Assembly: GCA_964587565.1 (NCBI GenBank)
Contig: CAZPLK010000004.1
Location: 4,220 to 68,219, forward strand
Direction: 5' to 3'
Length of the DNA stretch: 64,000 nt
Source of the DNA: an uncultured Muribaculaceae bacterium
GTDB lineage: Bacteria > Bacillota_I > Bacilli_A > RF39 > UBA660
Positions 3,049 to 26,109 of the stretch are shown here, piece by piece. Position 1 is the stretch's first letter; each line of letters begins with the position of its first letter. The notes beneath the pieces are model-generated. The model saw only the letters and a list, made by a program, of their open reading frames with translations, made no database searches and was not told the DNA's origin. A program made the translations under genes and the position numbers.

Positions 3049-3064
3049 TTTTTTCCTCCTTAAT

Positions 3065-3144
3065 AAAAAAACGCACACATACAGAGGGTTTTAAGGCTGC
3101 TGTCTTCCGACCCTGACCTAGTTCAACCATATATGTTGCGTCAC
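3065..3144 (-). ncRNA. ffs: Small (4.5S-type) signal recognition particle RNA
   Basis: The minus strand reads ...CUAGGUCAGGGUCGGAAGACAGCAGCCUUAA..., close to the SRP domain IV consensus (AGGUCAGGUCCGGAAGGAAGCAGCC) with a GGAA tetraloop. The 5' ACGCAACAUA pairs with the 3' UAUGUGUGCGU, followed by a U-run. Same tadA/ffs/dnaX neighbourhood as B. subtilis. Ends approximate. Confidence 0.8.
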
Positions 3145-3148
3145 TTAA

Positions 3149-3177
3149 ATAATATTATATCCTCAATATAATTGCAA
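3149..3177 (-). promoter_or_regulatory. Sigma-A type promoter for ffs (TTGCAA-N17-TATTAT)
   Basis: -35 at 3177-3172 and -10 at 3154-3149 on the minus strand. A G start lies about 6 nt downstream. Confidence 0.5.
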
Positions 3178-3256
3178 GTTTTTTTAACATTGATATCTCA
3201 AAACATTTCACTCAAAATATTAAATCGTGGTATTGCTCTATAATGTTGTTTTAAGT

Positions 3257-3272
3257 TGTTTCACACGGAACA
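3257..3272. promoter_or_regulatory. parS: Degenerate parS (TGTTTCACACGGAACA, 2 central mismatches)
   Basis: First unit of the array. Confidence 0.5.
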
Positions 3273-3296
3273 TTAGTTTGTGATATTGTTCTGTGA

Positions 3297-3312
3297 TGTT
3301 TCACGTGGAACA
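3297..3312. promoter_or_regulatory. parS: parS centromere site TGTTTCACGTGGAACA
   Basis: The reverse complement TGTTCCACGTGAAACA equals the Bacillus Spo0J/ParB parS consensus. Confidence 0.85.
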
Positions 3313-3336
3313 TTAGTCCGCGATGTTGTTTCAAGA

Positions 3337-3352
3337 TGTTTCACGTGGAACA
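3337..3352. promoter_or_regulatory. parS: parS centromere site TGTTTCACGTGGAACA
   Basis: Perfect consensus match, unit 3. Confidence 0.85.
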
Positions 3353-3376
3353 TTAATCTGTGATGTTGTTTCAAGA

Positions 3377-3392
3377 TGTTTCACGTGGAACA
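3377..3392. promoter_or_regulatory. parS: parS centromere site TGTTTCACGTGGAACA
   Basis: Perfect consensus match, unit 4. Confidence 0.85.
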
Positions 3393-3416
3393 TTAATCTG
3401 TGATATTGTTTCAAGA

Positions 3417-3432
3417 TGTTTCACGTGGAACA
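3417..3432. promoter_or_regulatory. parS: parS centromere site TGTTTCACGTGGAACA
   Basis: Perfect consensus match, unit 5. Lies 7 bp beyond the gyrA stop. Confidence 0.85.
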
Positions 3433-3438
3433 TTGTTT

Positions 3439-5895
3439 TTAACTGTTTGATTGATGTTCTTTGTGATCTTCGTTATTATCAGAATTTATTAGTGCTATTG
3501 AACTAACTGTTTGATCGTTTTTTAAGTTTATTAACTTTACACCTTGTGATACACGGCCAGTCTGTGAAATTTGTTCTGTAGGTATTTTTATAATTATACC
3601 TGAATCAGTAATTATCATTAAATTTTCTGAGTTATTAATTAATCTGAATGAAATTGGTTTACCATTTTTTTCAGTTATATTTAATGTTTTAACTCCTTTT
3701 GTGGCCCTATGTGTCGTTCTATATTCATTTATACTTGTTTTTTTACCATATCCTTTTTCTGTTACAACTAACACTAGTTCTTTGTCAGTTATAACTTCAC
3801 AACCAATACAATAACTATTTCCTATGTTTATTCCTCTGACTCCACTTGCTGTCCTTCCCATAACTCTAACTTCACTTTCATGAAATCTAATCATGCGTCC
3901 ATCAGATGTTGCTATCATTATTTCGTTTTCGCCTGATGTTTTTTTAACAGATATTAATTCGTCATTATCTTTAAGAGTAATTGCAATTTTTCCTGTTACT
4001 CTTATATTATTAAATTCACTAATTTTGGTTCGTTTTACTAATCCGTTTTGTGTACAGAATACAACATAATCTTTTTCTTCTTCTTCACCCATTTTTAATA
4101 ATACGGTAACCTTTTCGTCTTTATCTAATTGTAATAAATTTACAATTGGTATACCTTTCGATTGTCTACCAAAATGCGGAATAGTATATCCTTTACTTCT
4201 ATATACTTTTCCCTTATTAGTAAAGAATAATATATAATCGTGTGTTGTTAATGAAATTAAATTTTCTACAAAATCTTCTTCATTAATTCCCATTCCTCTT
4301 ACACCAACACCACCCCTATTTTGGGTTCGATACGTTTCTAAATCTACTCTTTTAATATATCCTTCACTAGTCATCGTTACAACAATATCCTCAACAGGTA
4401 TTAAAGATTCATCTTCTATGTATTCTATTGCAGTCATATCAATTGTAGTTCTTCGTTCATCACCATATTTATTTTTGATTTCTAATAATTCTTCTTTTAT
4501 TACATTTTTTATTTCTTCATCACTTGATAATATTAATTTTAATTGTGCAATTAATTCTTTTAGTTTTTCTAATTCATCTTCTATTTTTGCTCTTTCTATA
4601 CTAGATAATCTTCTTAATTTCATTTCTAATATAGCTTCTGATTGTATTTCAGTTAATTTATATTTTTCCGCAAATTTTATTTTAATTTCTTTTTCATTTT
4701 TTGATGTTTTAATTATTTGGATTATTTCATCAATATGATCTGTTGCTATTTTTAACCCTTCTAAAATATGAAATTGTTTTTCTGATCTATCTAAATCAAA
4801 TTTTGTTCTCCTATATATAACATTCATTTGATGTTCTAAATAGTATTTTAATATTTCTTTAAGTGGTAGTGTTCGAGGGCGACCATCTACTAACATTAAA
4901 AAATTAACACCTATTGATGTTTGCAATTGGGTATATTTATAAAGGTTGTTTAATACAACTTTAGGATTATAACCCTTTTTAACATCAATTACTATTTTTA
5001 TTCCCTCTAAAGCTGACTCATCAGTTAAGTTAGAAATTCCATCTATTTCTTTATCCCTTACTAACTCTGCTATTTTTTTGATTATATTAGTGTAATTAAT
5101 TTGATAAGGTATTTCCGTAATGATTAATTTTGATGAATCACCATGTTCTTCTATTTCTACTTTACCTCTAATTACAATAGTTCCCCTTCCAGTTTCATAA
5201 GCTTGTTTTATTCCACTGTTACCTAAAATTTTTCCACCAGTTGGAAAATCTGGTCCTTTTATATACAACATTAATTCTTCTAATGAAATTTCCTCATTAT
5301 CAATGTATTTTATTAAACCATCGATTGTTTCAGTTAAGTTGTGGGGAGGAATATTTGTAGCCATTCCAACAGCTATACCTATATTACCATTTACTAATAT
5401 ATTTGGATATCTCGAAGGTAACACTCTAGGCTCAACAGTTTCACCATCATAATTTGGAATGAAATCAACACTATTTTTATTGATATCTCTTAATAATTCA
5501 GCAGATATTTTTGATAATCGTGCTTCAGTATAACGAGATGCAGCAGGGCTTGAACCATCAGGAGCCCCGAAAGCTCCTTTACCATCTATTAATGGGTACC
5601 TATATGAAAAATCTTGTGCCATTCTTGCCATTGTATCATATATAGCAGCATCACCATGAGGGTGATATGCCATTACTTTACCACAAGTAGTTGCTGATTT
5701 TTTATATGTTTTATCGCTTGTTATACCTTCTTTAAAAAATGTATATAATATTCTTCGGTGAACTGGTTTTAAACCATCCCTAACATCCGGTATTGCCCTA
5801 GAAACAATAACACTCATTGAATAATCTAAAAACGAATTTTTAATTTCAGTAGATATATTAATATCTACTGTTTTATCTTTATCAATATATTCCAT
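3439..5895 (-). CDS. gyrA: DNA gyrase subunit A
   Basis: 818 aa. AAMRYTE-like ASRYTEARL active-site Tyr region, QRDR HPHGD, C-terminal beta-pinwheel repeats. Confidence 0.97.
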
Positions 5896-9044: not shown

Positions 9045-9078
9045 CAAAAAATTAAAAAAAGCGTTTTTAACGCTTTTC
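9045..9078 (-). terminator. Intrinsic terminator after the comK-like gene
   Basis: Stem AAAGCG/CGCTTT followed by a U-run on the minus strand. Overlaps the stop codon. Confidence 0.5.
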
Positions 9079-9525
9079 TTGAGTTTTTCTTTGTCTTAAA
9101 ATAGATTCTAATCTTGATGCTCTTAATATTTGATTTTCAAATGAGGAATATGAAATTGGAAATTTTAATGTTTTTCCATTTTTAAAAAATATAATTGTTT
9201 TATCATCAGATTTTTTATAATGTGAAATCTTATTTAATGAGATCCAAGAACATTCAGTTGAGCGAGCTGAACCTGTTGGAAAAAATATTATTTCACGAGT
9301 TTCCTCAATTATAATTGGACATTTGTATACCGTCCCGCCTAAAAATGTTTTGCTTCCTTCAAATCTTCCTAAATAAGAACTACCAAAATAACGACAACTA
9401 TCATCAATTATTTTAGGAGTAGTTCTATTTACGATAAAGCTACCTTCCTCTTCTATAATTTCACTTTTCGTATCATCAATTGCAAGCACTGCAATTGTTG
9501 AAGGATTGATTTCGTATTTCTTCAT
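9067..9525 (-). CDS. comK: ComK-family competence transcription factor homologue
   Basis: 152 aa. It aligns by eye along most of B. subtilis ComK (from memory): SCRYFGSSYLGR vs SCRFFGSSYAGR, FFPTGS vs LFPTLS, C.WIS, NGKTL.FPISYSSFENQ vs NGKTMELPISYNSFENQ. Own RBS AAGGAGGTG. Confidence 0.8.
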   Translation of the reverse strand: MKKYEINPSTIAVLAIDDTKSEIIEEEGSFIVNRTTPKIIDDSCRYFGSSYLGRFEGSKTFLGGTVYKCPIIIEETREIIFFPTGSARSTECSWISLNKISHYKKSDDKTIIFFKNGKTLKFPISYSSFENQILRASRLESILRQRKTQEKR

Positions 9526-10815: not shown

Positions 10816-10964
10816 AAAAAATCACCTCTTGATATATTATTTTTAATTATTATTATTATTATAGTTGTGAATTGTGTGGATAACTTTAAAATGTATTGAA
10901 TAATAAGACTTAATGGAGGGTTTTAAAATGTGGATAACTCTTGTAAAATTTAATGTTATTCACA
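10816..10964. promoter_or_regulatory. oriC: oriC sub-region (dnaA-dnaN spacer): DnaA boxes plus trinucleotide tract and AT-rich unwinding candidate
   Basis: Perfect TGTGGATAA at 10875-10883 and 10929-10937. TTATTCACA at 10956-10964. Weak box at 10866-10874. (ATT)5, which is TAA x5 on the minus strand, at 10846-10863. AT-only stretch at 10831-10845. Confidence 0.8.
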
Positions 10965-12314
10965 TTATTGTAATTGTCCTATAATTTTGTTAATTTCTTT
11001 TTCAAGTTCATTATTAGTTTTTAATTCCCTTTTAATTTTATCAACTGAATGTATTACGGTTGTGTGATCTTTTCCGCCAAATAAAAGTCCTATTTTGGCT
11101 AATGGCTCATTATAAACAGTTCTACAAATATACATAGCAACTTGCCTAGGAACTGCAATTGCAGCAATTCTTCTTTTTCCTTTTAGATCTTCAACTGTTA
11201 TATTATATAAATTAGCAACTAAATTTTGTACATGTTCAATTTTATTTTTCACATCTATACAATTACCAAAATAATCTTTTAGTGCATCAATTGCTAAATT
11301 TAAAGTAATGTCGGAACCATTCATCATAGTTGCATAAGCTACAACCCTCGTAATAGCACCTTCTAATTTTCTAATATCGCCAACACAATTATTAGCAATA
11401 TATTCTTTCACATCTTGTGGAAAATTAGTTTGAAGTCCATTTCCTTCAATTTTTTTATTGATAATACCTAATCGAAGTTCAAAGTTTGGAGGCATAATAT
11501 CAACCATCAATCCCCAAGTAAACCTAGTTCTTAAACGATCTTCTAACTGTTTCAAATCATCTGGTGATCTATCCGAAGAAATAATTATTTGTTTATTATT
11601 AGTATGTAGTTCATTAAAAGTATTAAAAAATTCTTGTTGAGTTTTACTTGCAATTTCTAAATACTGAATATCATCAATCATTAAAATATCAATATTACGA
11701 TATTTATTTTTAAATTTTTCTACTTCCTTAAAGTTATTGTCAAATTTGTTTTTTCGGTATAATTCAATAAAATCATTAACAAATTGTTCACTAGTTACAT
11801 ATAAAACCTTTTTTTCACTATTTTGTACAATATAATTACCTATAGCATGCATTAAATGAGTTTTACCTAATCCACTTTTACTATATATAAATAATGGATT
11901 GTACATAACACCTGGTTTTTCTGCAACTGCTAAAGCTGTTGTTTTAGCAAATTTATTACTTTCCCCTACCACAAAATTTTCAAAAAGATAATTAGGATTT
12001 AAATTAGATCTAAATATATCGAAGTCTTCTTCAATAATATCTATCTCATCATCTTTCATTTTTTCAATTTCTTCTTCCGTTAAAAAATCAAAGTTAAAAT
12101 TAGAACCAGTTACTTCATTAAAAACATTATCAATTAAATTCCCGTAATTTTCCTTTAAATGTTTTTTATGTATAATCATAGGGACCATAATTATGGCTTT
12201 ATTATTTTCTAAAGAAATCAATTTTGTATCAGCAAACCATGCTTCAAATAACATTGGTGCTAAATTCAATTTCATTTTATCTAAAAATTTATCCCAAATA
12301 TTATTAATATCCAA
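10965..12314 (-). CDS. dnaA: Chromosomal replication initiator DnaA
   Basis: 449 aa. AAA+ GKSGLGKTHL, IDDIQ, C-terminal DnaA-box binding helix (DHTTVIHS). Confidence 0.97.
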   Translation of the reverse strand: MDINNIWDKFLDKMKLNLAPMLFEAWFADTKLISLENNKAIIMVPMIIHKKHLKENYGNLIDNVFNEVTGSNFNFDFLTEEEIEKMKDDEIDIIEEDFDIFRSNLNPNYLFENFVVGESNKFAKTTALAVAEKPGVMYNPLFIYSKSGLGKTHLMHAIGNYIVQNSEKKVLYVTSEQFVNDFIELYRKNKFDNNFKEVEKFKNKYRNIDILMIDDIQYLEIASKTQQEFFNTFNELHTNNKQIIISSDRSPDDLKQLEDRLRTRFTWGLMVDIMPPNFELRLGIINKKIEGNGLQTNFPQDVKEYIANNCVGDIRKLEGAITRVVAYATMMNGSDITLNLAIDALKDYFGNCIDVKNKIEHVQNLVANLYNITVEDLKGKRRIAAIAVPRQVAMYICRTVYNEPLAKIGLLFGGKDHTTVIHSVDKIKRELKTNNELEKEINKIIGQLQ

Positions 12315-12547
12315 AGCACCACCACCTTATATAAGTCTAAAAATATTTTACACTAAAAAACCAAAAAAACCAAGTTAAATACTGTTTTCCACATGAAAAA
12401 ACATAAAAACTAACACTTTTCCCCAATTTTGTGGAAAAGTTATACAATTAACAAACGATTATAATAAGTTTTCCACAATATTGTGAATAACTATTAATTG
12501 CCCAGGAAATAAAAGTATTAAATATTCACATTTTAATGTGGATATGT
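12315..12547. promoter_or_regulatory. oriC: oriC sub-region / dnaA control region (dnaA-rpmH spacer) with a DnaA-box cluster
   Basis: TTTTCCACA at 12385-12393 and 12469-12477. TGTGGAAAA at 12430-12438. TGTGAATAA at 12482-12490. ATATTCACA at 12522-12530. TGTGGATAT at 12537-12545. All are within 2 mismatches of TTATCCACA. Confidence 0.8.
12497..12510. promoter_or_regulatory. NBS-like palindrome ATTGCCCAGGAAAT inside oriC (12/14)
   Basis: Lies between DnaA boxes 12482-12490 and 12522-12530. Two mismatches to ATTTCCCGGGAAAT. Confidence 0.3.
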
Positions 12548-17987: not shown

Positions 17988-18684
17988 AGAAGAGTTTAAA
18001 AACAATTTAAAAAACATTGGAATAATTGCTACTGACTTGCAATTAATTCAATTAAAGAAATATTATCAATTATTGTGTGAGTGGAACAAAAAAATGAATT
18101 TGACAAGGATTATTGAAAAAGAAGATGTGTATTTAAAACATTTTTATGATTCTTTAACAATAGTTAAAATAATAGATTTAAAAATGATTAATAATATGTG
18201 TGATGTAGGAACAGGTGCTGGTTTTCCTGGAATCGTAATAAAAATCTTTTTTCCTCAAATAGATGTTACTTTAATTGATTCATTAAATAAACGTGTAGTA
18301 TTTTTAAATGAAGTTATTTATGAATTACAACTAAATAATATAAATGTAATTCACGGTCGAATAGAGGATTATGCCAAAAATAACATATCCAAATTTGATT
18401 TAGTAGTAGCACGTGCAGTAGCACCTTTAAATGTATTGTTGGAATATTGTATTCCAATTGTAAAAGTTGGAAAAAATTTCGTAGCAATGAAAGGAGATAT
18501 TTCCCAGGAAATATTAAATTCGCAAAAGGCATTAAAAATTTTAAAATGTAGTGTAGTTAAAATTAAAAAATTTGAGCTACCTATTGAACAAAGTAAAAGG
18601 AGTTTAATATCAATAAAAAAGGAAACAAAAACACCTTCTAAATATCCCAGAGAATTTAAGCACATAAAAAATAATCCATTATAA
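17980..18684 (+). CDS. rsmG: 16S rRNA (guanine527-N7)-methyltransferase RsmG
   Basis: 234 aa. SAM motif DVGTGAGFPGI. Follows mnmG. Confidence 0.93.
   Translation: MTEEEFKNNLKNIGIIATDLQLIQLKKYYQLLCEWNKKMNLTRIIEKEDVYLKHFYDSLTIVKIIDLKMINNMCDVGTGAGFPGIVIKIFFPQIDVTLIDSLNKRVVFLNEVIYELQLNNINVIHGRIEDYAKNNISKFDLVVARAVAPLNVLLEYCIPIVKVGKNFVAMKGDISQEILNSQKALKILKCSVVKIKKFELPIEQSKRSLISIKKETKTPSKYPREFKHIKNNPL
18499..18512. promoter_or_regulatory. NBS-like palindrome ATTTCCCAGGAAAT inside rsmG (13/14)
   Basis: Same 19-mer as in dnaX. Lies about 270 bp upstream of the noc-like start. Confidence 0.45.
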
Positions 18685-18689
18685 AAAAC

Positions 18690-18703
18690 ATTTCCCGGGA
18701 AAT
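18690..18703. promoter_or_regulatory. Perfect Noc-binding site ATTTCCCGGGAAAT (followed by half-site ATTTCCC at 18704-18710)
   Basis: Exact match to the 14-bp B. subtilis NBS palindrome as I recall it. Located in the rsmG-noc intergenic region, about 80 bp upstream of the noc-like start. Confidence 0.65.
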
Positions 18704-18779
18704 ATTTCCCAAAAAAGATTGTAATATTAAGTAAAATATAGTAATATAAAAGTATAAAAGAATAAAAAGGAGGCAAATT

Positions 18780-20108
18780 GTGGAAAATAAAAGAAAAGTT
18801 ATTGAATTAAATCTTGATGATGTTTTACCAAATAGGTTCCAGCCACGAATTAAATTTGATGAAAAGGCAATTAATGAATTAGCCGGTTCAATTAAAGAAT
18901 ACGGAGTCATACAACCAATTTTAGTAAGGGAAATTGGAGATAAATACGAAATTATCGCAGGTGAAAGAAGATATAAAGCTAGTGCACTAGCAGGTAAACA
19001 AACAATTCCTGCAATAATAAGTAATTTGAATGATAGAGATAGTGCTGAAGTCGCACTAATTGAAAATATACAAAGGAAAGATTTAACTCCAATAGAAGAG
19101 GCAATATCATACAAAAAAATATTAGATATGGGTTATTTAAACCAAGAAGAATTAGCTGACAAATTAGATAAAACGCAATCAACAATATCAAATAAACTAA
19201 GACTATTAAATTTAGACGAGGAAGTTCAAGAAGCTTTATTAAATAATCAAATTTCTGAAAGACATGCTAGATCATTATTGAGATTAGAAAACTCAATGGA
19301 ACAAAAAGAAATGTTACAAAGAATTATTGAAGAAAGATTACCAGTTAGGAAAACTGATATAGAAATTGACAAAATATTAAATATTGAATCTTATACAGCT
19401 GATTATTCTAGTGAAAAGATAGAAAACGATATACCAGATGAAAAAGTTGATATCTTTAATATTCCTTCATCACCGATAATAGAATCGTTTGATGAAATAG
19501 AAATATTTGATGATTTTAATAACAATGAGACAAATTTTAAACCTGGATTTTTAGATATTGATAGAATTGAACAAACAGCGGAAGAAATAAATACAGAACA
19601 ACCATTAGCGGATATTCAAAAATTATTAGAATCTGATAATAATACCATTAATAATGAAATATATGAAGGTGTCGAAGAAAAAGAAGAAAATAATAATATA
19701 ATTCATGGTAAATTTTTCAGTTTTGTAGATGATAATAAAAATAATGAATTAGTTACAGAACAAACAGATAATGATAATAAAACAAATTTAAATGAGTTAA
19801 ACAGTGATTTTATAACTGATATTAAAAGTGAAGAAGTTTCATCGACATTTGAACCGGATTATAATTTTGATTTTACGCCTAGTGATGTAGAAACTGATAA
19901 ATTATTATTTGGTAATAATGATGTAGTAGATTACTCAATCCCAGGAGTTGATGATATAGAATACGGTGAAAAAACAATTACTTTAAATAATGCAATAACA
20001 GAAGCAAGGAATTTTGGACAAACATTAGAAAAAATGGGTTTTGAAATAGAAATTGAAGAATTAGATTTAATGGATATTTATGAAATTAAATTTAAAATAA
20101 AAAAATAA
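18780..20108 (+). CDS. noc: Nucleoid occlusion protein Noc-like ParB paralogue (atypical, 442 aa)
   Basis: GTG start after AAAAAGGAGG. ParB N-domain (IQPILVR, GERRYKAS). The HTH KTQSTISNKLRLL...ISERHARSL resembles B. subtilis Noc (KGQSTIANKLRLL...ITERHARAL) rather than Spo0J. Position after rsmG. Long D/E/N-rich insert, then a Noc-like C-terminal domain. Confidence 0.75.
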   Translation: MENKRKVIELNLDDVLPNRFQPRIKFDEKAINELAGSIKEYGVIQPILVREIGDKYEIIAGERRYKASALAGKQTIPAIISNLNDRDSAEVALIENIQRKDLTPIEEAISYKKILDMGYLNQEELADKLDKTQSTISNKLRLLNLDEEVQEALLNNQISERHARSLLRLENSMEQKEMLQRIIEERLPVRKTDIEIDKILNIESYTADYSSEKIENDIPDEKVDIFNIPSSPIIESFDEIEIFDDFNNNETNFKPGFLDIDRIEQTAEEINTEQPLADIQKLLESDNNTINNEIYEGVEEKEENNNIIHGKFFSFVDDNKNNELVTEQTDNDNKTNLNELNSDFITDIKSEEVSSTFEPDYNFDFTPSDVETDKLLFGNNDVVDYSIPGVDDIEYGEKTITLNNAITEARNFGQTLEKMGFEIEIEELDLMDIYEIKFKIKK

Positions 20109-24452: not shown

Positions 24453-25238
24453 ATGGGAAAAGTAATTTCACTTGTCAATCAAAAGGGTGGTGTTGGTAAA
24501 ACAACATCAAGTATCAATTTAGCAGCTTCATTGGGTGTTTTAAGAAAAAAAGTTTTACTTATTGACTTAGATCCCCAAGGTAATGCAACAACTGGAATTG
24601 GAATTAATAAAGCCGATATTAGAAAAAGTATATATGATTTACTTATTGATGAAGCTTCATTGAATGAAGTTATTGTCAAAACAAAATTTAAAAATTTATA
24701 TGTTATTCCTGCTACGATAAATTTAGCAGGCGTTGATATAGAATTAATGGATAAAAGTCGTTTAGAACCAGGTTTTTCTAAAGGTGGCCAATTAAAAAAA
24801 TATATAGACGAAATTAAAAATGTTTTTGATTATATAATAATTGATTGCCCACCATCATTGGGAATATTGACTACCAATGCTTTGACTGCGAGTGATTCAG
24901 TAATAATACCAGTTCAGTGTGAATTTTTTGCTCTAGAAGGTATAATGCAATTGTTAAATACAATTATGTTAGCACAAAAAAATTTAAATCCATCCTTAGA
25001 TATCGAAGGTGTATTATTAACTATGTTAGATAGTAGAACAAAATTAGGATTAGAAGTTGTAGAAGAAATTAAAAGTTACTTCAAAGAACGTGTATACGAT
25101 ACAATAATACCAAGGTTAGTTCGATTGTCAGAAGCTCCCAGTCATGGTAAACCTATAATAGCATATGATCCACAAAGTAGAGGAACAGAAGCATATATAA
25201 ATTTAGCTAAGGAAGTGATTGAAAGAAATGGAAAATAA
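24453..25238 (+). CDS. soj: Chromosome partitioning ATPase ParA/Soj
   Basis: 261 aa. Deviant Walker A NQKGGVGKTT. Directly upstream of parB. Confidence 0.93.
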   Translation: MGKVISLVNQKGGVGKTTSSINLAASLGVLRKKVLLIDLDPQGNATTGIGINKADIRKSIYDLLIDEASLNEVIVKTKFKNLYVIPATINLAGVDIELMDKSRLEPGFSKGGQLKKYIDEIKNVFDYIIIDCPPSLGILTTNALTASDSVIIPVQCEFFALEGIMQLLNTIMLAQKNLNPSLDIEGVLLTMLDSRTKLGLEVVEEIKSYFKERVYDTIIPRLVRLSEAPSHGKPIIAYDPQSRGTEAYINLAKEVIERNGK

Positions 25239-26109
25239 AAAACGCGCTCTAGGAATGGGTTTAGAACAATTGTTTAATAGTGAAAATTTAGATTTGGCAA
25301 ATATGGAGAAAAAAATATATGACTCAGTGAAAACTGAAGAAATAATTGATATTAAAATTGAAGATTTGCGCCCAAATCCTTATCAACCTAGAAAAATATT
25401 TGATGAAGAAGCTATAAATGAACTGTCAAACTCAATAAAAGAGCATGGTGTTATTCAACCGATAATAATTAAAAAATCGATAAAAGGATTTGAAATCATA
25501 GCTGGTGAAAGAAGGGTAAGAGCGAGTAAAAAGGCTGGCCTAGAAACAATTCCTGCTATAATTAGAAACTTTACAGATGAACAAATGATGGAAATCGCCC
25601 TTTTAGAAAATTTACAAAGGGAAGATTTAAGTGCAATTGAAGAAGCACTTGCTTACAAAATGATGTTAGAAAAATTGGAGATAACTCATGAACAATTATC
25701 AAAAAAAGTAGGAAAAAGTAGAAGTCATATTACAAATATGTTAGGTTTATTAAGGTTGCCTAAAGAAGTTCAAGATATGATTAATAATAAAAAAATAACT
25801 ATGGGTCATGCTAGGGTGTTAAGTAAACTTGATGATGAAACTCAAATAATAGAAACAGCTAAAAATATAGTTGATCATAAAATACCTGTACGTGAATTAG
25901 AACAAACTGCAGATCCAAAAAAGTTTGAAAGAAGAAACAAAATAAAAAGACCGATTAGAGAAGATAATAATAAATATAAACATATTGAAGAATTATTATG
26001 TGATAAATTGGATACCAAAATCAAAATTAGAGATAATAAATTGATTATAAATTTTACTAATGTAGCAGATTTAAATAGAATATTAGAAGTGTTAAACATA
26101 AAGGAGTAA
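25228..26109 (+). CDS. spo0J: Chromosome partitioning protein ParB/Spo0J
   Basis: N-terminal KRALGMGLEQLF ParA-interaction peptide, GERRVRAS CTP motif, HTH KSRSHITNMLGLL...MGHARVL. ATG at 25228 preferred over the TTG at 25219. Confidence 0.92.
   Translation: MENKKRALGMGLEQLFNSENLDLANMEKKIYDSVKTEEIIDIKIEDLRPNPYQPRKIFDEEAINELSNSIKEHGVIQPIIIKKSIKGFEIIAGERRVRASKKAGLETIPAIIRNFTDEQMMEIALLENLQREDLSAIEEALAYKMMLEKLEITHEQLSKKVGKSRSHITNMLGLLRLPKEVQDMINNKKITMGHARVLSKLDDETQIIETAKNIVDHKIPVRELEQTADPKKFERRNKIKRPIREDNNKYKHIEELLCDKLDTKIKIRDNKLIINFTNVADLNRILEVLNIKE

Follow-up and report, generated by a model that had tools for sequence, protein, structure and literature searches.

A tandem array of parS sites between gyrA and ffs as a probable origin-proximal chromosomal centromere in an uncultured Bacilli lineage

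Why would a bacterial chromosome carry five head-to-tail copies of one 40-bp unit, each holding a parS-type site for the segregation protein ParB, in the spacer between gyrA and ffs? We examined this question in a stretch of 64,000 nucleotides from an uncultured bacterium (assembly GCA_964587565.1, contig CAZPLK010000004.1, positions 4,220 to 68,219), referred to here as the window. In our estimate it is about 85% probable that the array is an origin-proximal chromosomal centromere, in which four parS sites are at full strength and a fifth is decaying, and that it arose by recent tandem duplication of the 40-bp unit. The sequence hallmarks of a chromosomal ParABS system are found at or near the locus, namely parS sites, a cognate ParB, a ParA, proximity to the origin, and conservation of the site and not of its surroundings.

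Tandem Repeats Finder (TRF) placed a repeat of period 40 at 3246-3434 (4.7 copies, 87% matches, score 273), and no other tandem repeat of the window scores nearly as high. This agrees with the five tandem units that an initial annotation of this DNA had described at 3245-3435. Read in the register of the minus strand, the whole array spans 3233..3432 and consists of five 40-bp units, each made of a 16-bp parS and a 24-bp spacer. Scanning both strands of the window with the parS consensus TGTTNCACGTGAAACA gave 9 strand-matches with up to two mismatches, where 0.03 were expected, and 0 of 100 shuffles reached 9. Four sites on the minus strand match TGTTCCACGTGAAACA exactly, at 3417..3432 (parS 1, whose start lies 6 nt past the gyrA TAA), 3377..3392 (parS 2), 3337..3352 (parS 3) and 3297..3312 (parS 4). 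The outermost site, parS 5 (3257..3272, minus strand), reads TGTTCCGTGTGAAACA and has two mismatches, both in the central CACGTG. The consensus scan thus recovered, at all five positions, the four perfect copies and the centrally altered outermost copy reported earlier. With these two changes, parS 5 may be bound poorly, and it is probably weak or decaying. The initial annotation had seen no other parS in the window, even inside parB, and indeed none was found outside the array at up to two mismatches. Allowing three mismatches added 5 matches beyond the array against 2.0 expected in all, slightly above chance, and none of the three-mismatch matches lay inside parB. Small open reading frames (ORFs) within the array are repeat-driven and no longer than 48 aa, and were disregarded.

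The units of the array are similar, and all five are distinct, differing from one another at 1-12 of 40 positions. The earlier remark that the spacers are conserved and carry a parS half-site was half right: the 24-bp spacers are nearly identical among the units, but the half-site TTGAAACA is intact in only three of the five, is specific to the array of the window, and sits in a spacer that is unrelated to those of relatives. Among units 1-4, variable columns number 0 of 16 in parS and 9 of 24 in the spacer (P = 0.005).

Each of the four perfect copies has the sequence of the optimal parS of Bacillus subtilis, TGTTCCACGTGAAACA (PMC8299390). Their likely partners are encoded 21 kb from the array. 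The gene parA (24453..25238, plus strand), a soj-type Walker ATPase with matches to the AAA_31, CbiA and ParA families, overlaps the start of parB (25228..26109, plus strand), a spo0J-type gene with the Pfam domains ParB_N and HTH_ParB whose product is the presumed reader of the array. The best match of this ParB is B. subtilis Spo0J (PDB 6SDK, E 6e-62), and it carries ENLQRE together with a cytidine triphosphate (CTP)-binding motif, GERRvRA, of the GERRxRA type. In Caulobacter numbering, parS-binding ParBs invariably have R173 and G201, and Noc has Q173, K179, K184 and R201 (PMC7383237). In the ParB of the window the stretch is GKSR...N-M...MGHAR, with R and G at the parS-specific positions. 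Site and protein alike therefore bear out the Bacillus-type identity first assigned to these repeats.

A second ParB-family gene, which the initial annotation had overlooked along with its binding sites, lies at 18780-20108 (plus strand), directly after rsmG. Among PDB structures its product matches Noc best (7NG0, E 3e-59), and it reads DKTQ...N-K...ERHAR, giving Q, K and R as in Noc. This Noc-like paralog is without the ~32 N-terminal residues found in ParB, has no obvious membrane-targeting peptide, and devotes ~240 of its 442 aa to a C-terminal extension that is acidic and of low complexity. The consensus of the Noc-binding site (NBS), ATTTCCCGGGAAAT, had 4 matches in the window with up to two mismatches, compared with 0.29 expected, at 1635-1648 (inside dnaX), 12497-12510 (in the oriC region), 18499-18512 and 18690-18703. 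The last is a perfect ATTTCCCGGGAAAT with an adjoining half-site (18690-18710), ~75 bp upstream of the start of the Noc-like gene. The array itself contains no match to ATTTCCCGGGAAAT, which rules it out as a Noc-binding site. Because of the specificity residues of the two proteins and the location of the NBS matches outside the array, the array is predicted to be the cognate target of ParB and not of the Noc-like paralog.

Searches with ParB and GyrA showed that the nearest relatives are uncultured metagenome-assembled genomes (MAGs), labelled "Mollicutes bacterium" or "Bacilli bacterium" at NCBI, with best identities to the proteins of the window of 79% (ParB) and 81% (GyrA). From metagenomic relatives whose GyrA C-terminal region is 49-63% identical we took the DNA on both sides of the GyrA C-terminus and counted parS with at most one mismatch. 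In 16 relatives, 65 parS lie within the 19.2 kb right after gyrA (~1.3 kb each) vs. 0 in the other 82.9 kb. Fetched loci of less than ~50% identity and with higher GC mostly had no parS after gyrA. The gyrA-ffs arrangement is conserved in the relatives according to Rfam, and for most of them parS falls in the gyrA-ffs spacer; in L090, L136 and L137 the runs of parS come after ffs or around dnaX, and L090 has them on both sides of dnaX. The number of sites at the locus ranges from 1 to 10 per relative and their layout from dispersed to tandem. At one end stands L131, with 9 parS in a 1.1-kb spacer that is non-coding and non-repetitive; no longer-period repeats were found in the dispersed clusters of L131 and L125. 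At the other are tandem units of 42 bp in L103 and L137 (three of them, plus other sites, in L103), of 44 and 45 bp in L090 (four of 44 bp plus others), of 55 bp in L133, and of 50 bp in L299, a relative with 80% identical GyrA whose contig ends in the fourth copy and which has four or more. In addition, L301, which like L299, L103 and L090 is one of the closer relatives, has 5 parS and a 255-bp repeat that carries two sites. The spacers of the relatives are unrelated to those of the window and between lineages, and only the 16-mer is conserved. Since unit lengths differ and spacers are unrelated between lineages, it looks as though parS arrays have been amplified recurrently and independently. 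The comparison strongly supports the parS assignment, and taken with the variation among units 1-4 it speaks strongly for selection that maintains both the ParB site and a plurality of such sites at this locus. It also shows that such arrays are routine in relatives, so that the novelty once attached to this one falls and the parS assignment stands, just as the initial annotation had foreseen for this outcome.

The same comparison bears on the spacing of the sites, which had been singled out as perfectly phased. A unit of 40 bp corresponds to 3.81 helical turns, so that each successive site is rotated by about -69 degrees, and the relatives use many periods (42, 44, 45, 50 and 55 bp). Helical phasing of the sites on one face is ruled out on both grounds, and for these reasons we see no structural meaning in the period of 40 bp. 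Its regularity is best taken as the imprint of a recent tandem duplication. As a separate observation, perfect or half NBSs occur beside or between the post-gyrA parS sites in relatives L018 (2050-2086), L147 (~840-860), L298 (5495-5514), L300 (5470-5484) and L137 (1655-1700). Candidate loading sites for ParB and Noc are thus interleaved within tens of bp in several relatives; the array of the window is without an NBS.

Seen against its relatives, the array appears to be this genome's version of a "centromere island" that occupies the gyrA-ffs-dnaX interval throughout the lineage and in which the number of sites changes by local duplication and decay. A further step would be to regard this island as the sole or dominant centromere of an uncultured, reduced-genome Bacilli lineage in which parS dosage is tuned by recurrent amplification and decay. 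We offer this only tentatively. The island would then be a fast-evolving centromeric variable-number tandem repeat (VNTR), with units of 40, 42, 44/45, 50, 55 and 255 bp and with NBSs interleaved in some members.

The genomic setting of the array is that of a canonical origin region. The window has ~26% GC, and the standard bacterial code fits, given the intact ORFs of gyrA, gyrB and dnaX. The genes of the minus strand run in the order dnaA, dnaN, a ComK-family gene, recF, gyrB, gyrA, the array, ffs, a tadA-like deaminase gene and dnaX. The upstream neighbour of the array is gyrA (3439..5895, minus strand; Pfam DNA_topoisoIV and DNA_gyraseA_C), and the downstream neighbour is ffs (3058..3151, minus strand), which encodes the small signal recognition particle (SRP) RNA (Rfam RF00169 Bacteria_small_SRP, 61.4 bits). 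The dnaA ORF is located at 10965-12314 (minus strand), and clusters of DnaA boxes that form part of oriC lie in the dnaA-dnaN spacer (10875..10964, by box scan, 7.4 kb from the array) and upstream of dnaA (12385..12545, by box scan and GC skew), neither with an assigned strand. The GC skew switches sign at ~12-13 kb. From this switch and the DnaA-box clusters around dnaA we place the array 7.4-9 kb from oriC, consistent with the ~7.5 kb estimated before. The ComK-family gene (9067-9525, minus strand; Pfam ComK, E 1e-43) is situated between dnaN and recF in an otherwise canonical origin cluster.

With respect to transcription, the minus strand shows no terminator-like site from the gyrA stop to the array, as had been remarked of the sequence at the outset, and gyrA read-through into the array is therefore plausible. 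The close relatives L298, L299 and L300 have a hairpin and T-tract terminator right after gyrA and before parS; in the window (3433-3441), amplification may have replaced it. A promoter-like site for ffs, TTGCAA-17-TATTAT (3149..3177, minus strand; a consensus match only), lies ~55 bp beyond the last unit of the array, so that the description of the array as abutting the ffs promoter does not hold.

How might such an array work? In the mechanism that we propose, dimers of ParB (25228-26109) would recognise each 16-bp palindrome through their HTH domains, and binding to parS would trigger CTP-dependent closing of the N-terminal gate. The closed clamp would then leave parS and slide over the flanking DNA, i.e., gyrA/gyrB, ffs and dnaX, and towards oriC 7.5 kb away. 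With gaps of 24 bp between sites, several ParB dimers could nucleate at once, at 4 to 5 nucleation points, and the array would thereby raise the loading rate, size and robustness of the partition complex. This complex would be moved by ParA and would normally also load SMC. Condensation of the partition complex by B. subtilis ParB in vitro does scale with the number of parS (PMC8299390), and C. glutamicum cells left with a single parS gather less ParB in each cluster than wild-type cells do, yet grow normally (PMC7083940).

Several points weigh against reading the array as a centromere of this kind. From the sequence we infer ParB binding, the CTP clamp cycle, simultaneous occupancy, the benefit of multiplicity and transcription of the array. 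The parS scan spans 64 kb, and further sites may exist elsewhere in the genome. One parS suffices in several model species, and extra copies may add little. Without an upstream terminator, read-through from gyrA could disturb the residence of ParB. Finally, the copy number rests on one assembly, and the short-read contigs available for comparison break in the array.

These contigs merit closer attention, since the locus might be an assembly artefact or a mis-estimated repeat, with fewer or more than five units in reality. Independent sequence came from Logan short-read contigs of runs SRR8925797 and SRR8925798, found by exact-protein look-ups. Exact look-ups of ParA, GyrA, DnaX and TadA returned only short Logan contigs, broken in the array, and an exact look-up of ParB from its TTG start gave no match. 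On the gyrA side, L123 and L124 contain parS 1; one of the two ends 34 nt and the other 64 nt past the gyrA stop, inside units 1 and 2, and the start of parS 2 is seen at the end of L123. On the ffs side, L296 and L297 begin inside unit 3, include parS 3, parS 4 and the degenerate parS 5, and cover units 4 and 5 before reaching ffs, tadA and dnaX. All four contigs, from two runs, therefore end within the array, and none crosses the junction from units 1/2 to unit 3. The contigs of the three closest relatives (L298, L299 and L300) likewise break off shortly beyond gyrA, within or adjacent to their own parS runs, so that such arrays evidently interrupt short-read assembly. Against an artefact, the five units are all distinct, and the Logan contigs reproduce the sequence of the window base for base for units 1, 3, 4 and 5 and for the start of unit 2. 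The locus must hence hold four to five units at the least, and hidden copies are possible only for an identical unit 1 or 2. The repeat is thus real and the total copy number is five or more, the exact count resting on one assembly; a count other than five is unlikely. The short-read contig ends seen in the window genome and in relatives argue that tandem parS arrays are likely to be truncated or under-represented in MAG collections, where they are probably under-counted.

A more serious competitor is that the array is a neutral copy-number variant, in which one parS is functional and the extra units are an unselected expansion by slipped-strand or unequal-crossover events, in other words a decaying VNTR. 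The near-identical spacers and the differences of 1-12 of 40 positions between units are those of a recent duplication, and the change of period and spacer in every relative (40, 42, 44/45, 50, 55 and 255 bp) implies rapid turnover. The outermost unit is degenerating, and a single parS is sufficient in C. glutamicum and P. aeruginosa. However, nearly all relatives keep 3-10 sites, among them old dispersed ones with diverged flanks, such as the 9 of L131 with no tandem repeat, and this retention argues for selection on multiplicity itself. Moreover, the substitutions among units 1-4 all avoid the parS core, with the probability given above. We therefore regard neutrality as possible but doubtful. 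Less credible still, and somewhat less so than a miscounted repeat, is a regulatory or insulating element, in which bound ParB or another CACGTG factor would block gyrA read-through or control the ffs promoter, in place of a role in segregation or alongside it. The array does lie between gyrA and the promoter-like site of ffs, and the window is without the intrinsic post-gyrA terminator that relatives have. Yet in L090, L136 and L137 the parS runs are downstream of ffs, so that position relative to the ffs promoter is not conserved, and the only sequence that the lineages have kept in common is the ParB site itself. An RNA-level or mobile element, be it a structured 3' untranslated region or small RNA, an array resembling clustered regularly interspaced short palindromic repeats (CRISPR), or the remnant of an integrated plasmid or phage centromere, is very improbable. 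The array is probably co-transcribed with gyrA and its palindromes can form hairpins, but the transcribed strand folds no better than shuffles (z = -1.43) and, at a permissive threshold, Rfam families gave only chance, sub-threshold matches. Together with the lack of a minus-strand terminator, these results speak against an intrinsic terminator or structured RNA; a CRISPR array is ruled out by 24-bp spacers that are near-identical instead of unique. The layout does recall sopC of the F plasmid (PMC3177203), and to that extent the plasmid or phage likeness noted initially is sound. An actual origin from such an element is not borne out: blastn of the array against 72,556 plasmid records gave no match, phage records gave only two 60-bp matches of ~80%, parAB is 21 kb away, and core genes whose order is conserved lie on either side.

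A chromosomal centromere thus remains the reading that we favour, and the next question is how unusual its layout is. We scanned GTDB, with one representative genome for each of 185,579 species, for two consensus parS 10-40 bp apart. At least 120 loci with close parS pairs were found, in many phyla. Close consensus pairs or triplets, with sites 26-56 bp apart, are common across phyla, and among the matches listed the pairs mostly adjoin parAB, rsmG or mnmG. The 120 loci listed comprise 104 pairs, 14 triplets, 2 quadruplets and 0 with five or more sites, and the genome of the window is not among them. Runs of four or more parS are accordingly rare (2 of 120) among the matches listed, where the window, with its four exact sites plus a degenerate fifth, stands at the top of the range; the theme itself is common. 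This result, along with the 1-10 parS found at the same place in relatives, several in tandem, overturns the rarity at first claimed for the array. Many Collinsella spp. (among them L045, L051, L064, L070, L078, L084, L091 and L104) share a triplet of perfect palindromic parS, spaced by exactly 39 bp, between rsmG and parA, and the non-identical spacers of this triplet suggest an old, maintained three-site centromere. Paired consensus parS were also found at 120 or more loci in IMG/VR viral contigs (L176-L295, e.g., L183, L186 and L221). Among the 120 viral loci listed, 42 bp is by far the commonest spacing, and 63 lie on ~11.5-kb contigs with a GC of ~0.44, several of which repeat the match at both ends, as in a circular element. 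With the proteins of the window as query, a ParA/ParB homologue was found in 0 of these 63 contigs, and a ParB-like gene at 2 of the 120 viral loci listed. The ~11.5-kb contigs may represent small mobile elements that use the ParABS system of their host. Among the papers listed by one full-text search, "tandem parS" was absent and "parS array" occurred only in two papers on plasmids and one on live-cell imaging. Tandem chromosomal parS arrays thus seem not to have been singled out there, on a basis that lies outside the survey of Livny et al. (2007).

ParB loading and chromosome segregation are textbook processes, and a site identical to the B. subtilis optimum implies no new mechanism. The array performs, as we read it, a canonical function in a slightly unusual, compact tandem layout. 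What is gained is that an uncultured Bacilli lineage of the gut or rumen has its centromere pinned to a conserved island after gyrA, and that the number of parS is shown to change by repeated local tandem duplication. The latter bears on a question left open in a 2020 review of ParABS systems, namely why parS number varies and why sites cluster (PMC7333895). If the island reading is true, these genomes would offer a natural allelic series, of 1 to 10 or more sites in tandem or dispersed form, for testing the effects of parS number and clustering. Since B. subtilis has this very 16-mer as its optimum, the 1x to 5x arrays found in nature would be directly testable in B. subtilis or with Spo0J in vitro.

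The closest known system is parS/Spo0J-Soj of B. subtilis, which shares with the window the same 16-bp site, a location near the origin, the same ParB domains and the GERRxRA motif, and whose Spo0J (6SDK) is the best match to ParB. In B. subtilis, too, a Noc paralog with its own NBS coexists with ParB, as in the window. The parS sites of B. subtilis are dispersed over hundreds of kb, and many are inside genes, including spo0J. In contrast, all detectable parS of the 64 kb studied here are in 190 bp of intergenic direct repeats and none is in parB. Clusters near the origin are known from C. glutamicum (10 parS in 35 kb), P. aeruginosa (4), M. xanthus (22), and S. coelicolor and L. innocua (20-23); multiplicity has been tied to ParB complexes of greater size or robustness, even though cells are viable with a single site (PMC7083940, PMC7333895, PMC3899335). 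These clusters resemble the window in having multiple redundant consensus parS near oriC. They differ from it in extending over kilobases with unrelated intervening DNA, whereas the window has head-to-tail copies of one 40-bp unit. In architecture the array matches sopC of F, in which a 43-bp unit is directly repeated 12 times and SopB binds the 16-bp inverted repeat within each unit (PMC3177203). The two share one plan, ~40-bp direct repeats with one 16-bp palindromic site for a ParB-family protein in each; sopC differs in its site sequence, its type Ia ParB, its plasmid-borne nature and its place next to sopAB, and the array of the window is chromosomal and 21 kb from parAB. Regular spacing of consensus parS, as in the window, is also seen in Collinsella spp. 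(3 x 39 bp by rsmG-parAB) and in an Acidobacteriota MAG (4 x 52 bp), and in the Bacilli MAGs L090, L103 and L299 it is found in the same lineage and at the same post-gyrA locus. The tandem parS runs of other genomes (39-55 bp spacing) have unit lengths and spacers unrelated to those of the window. Between these regular arrays and the clusters spread over kilobases, the dispersed clusters of the relatives, such as the 9 sites in 1.1 kb of L131, represent an intermediate form.

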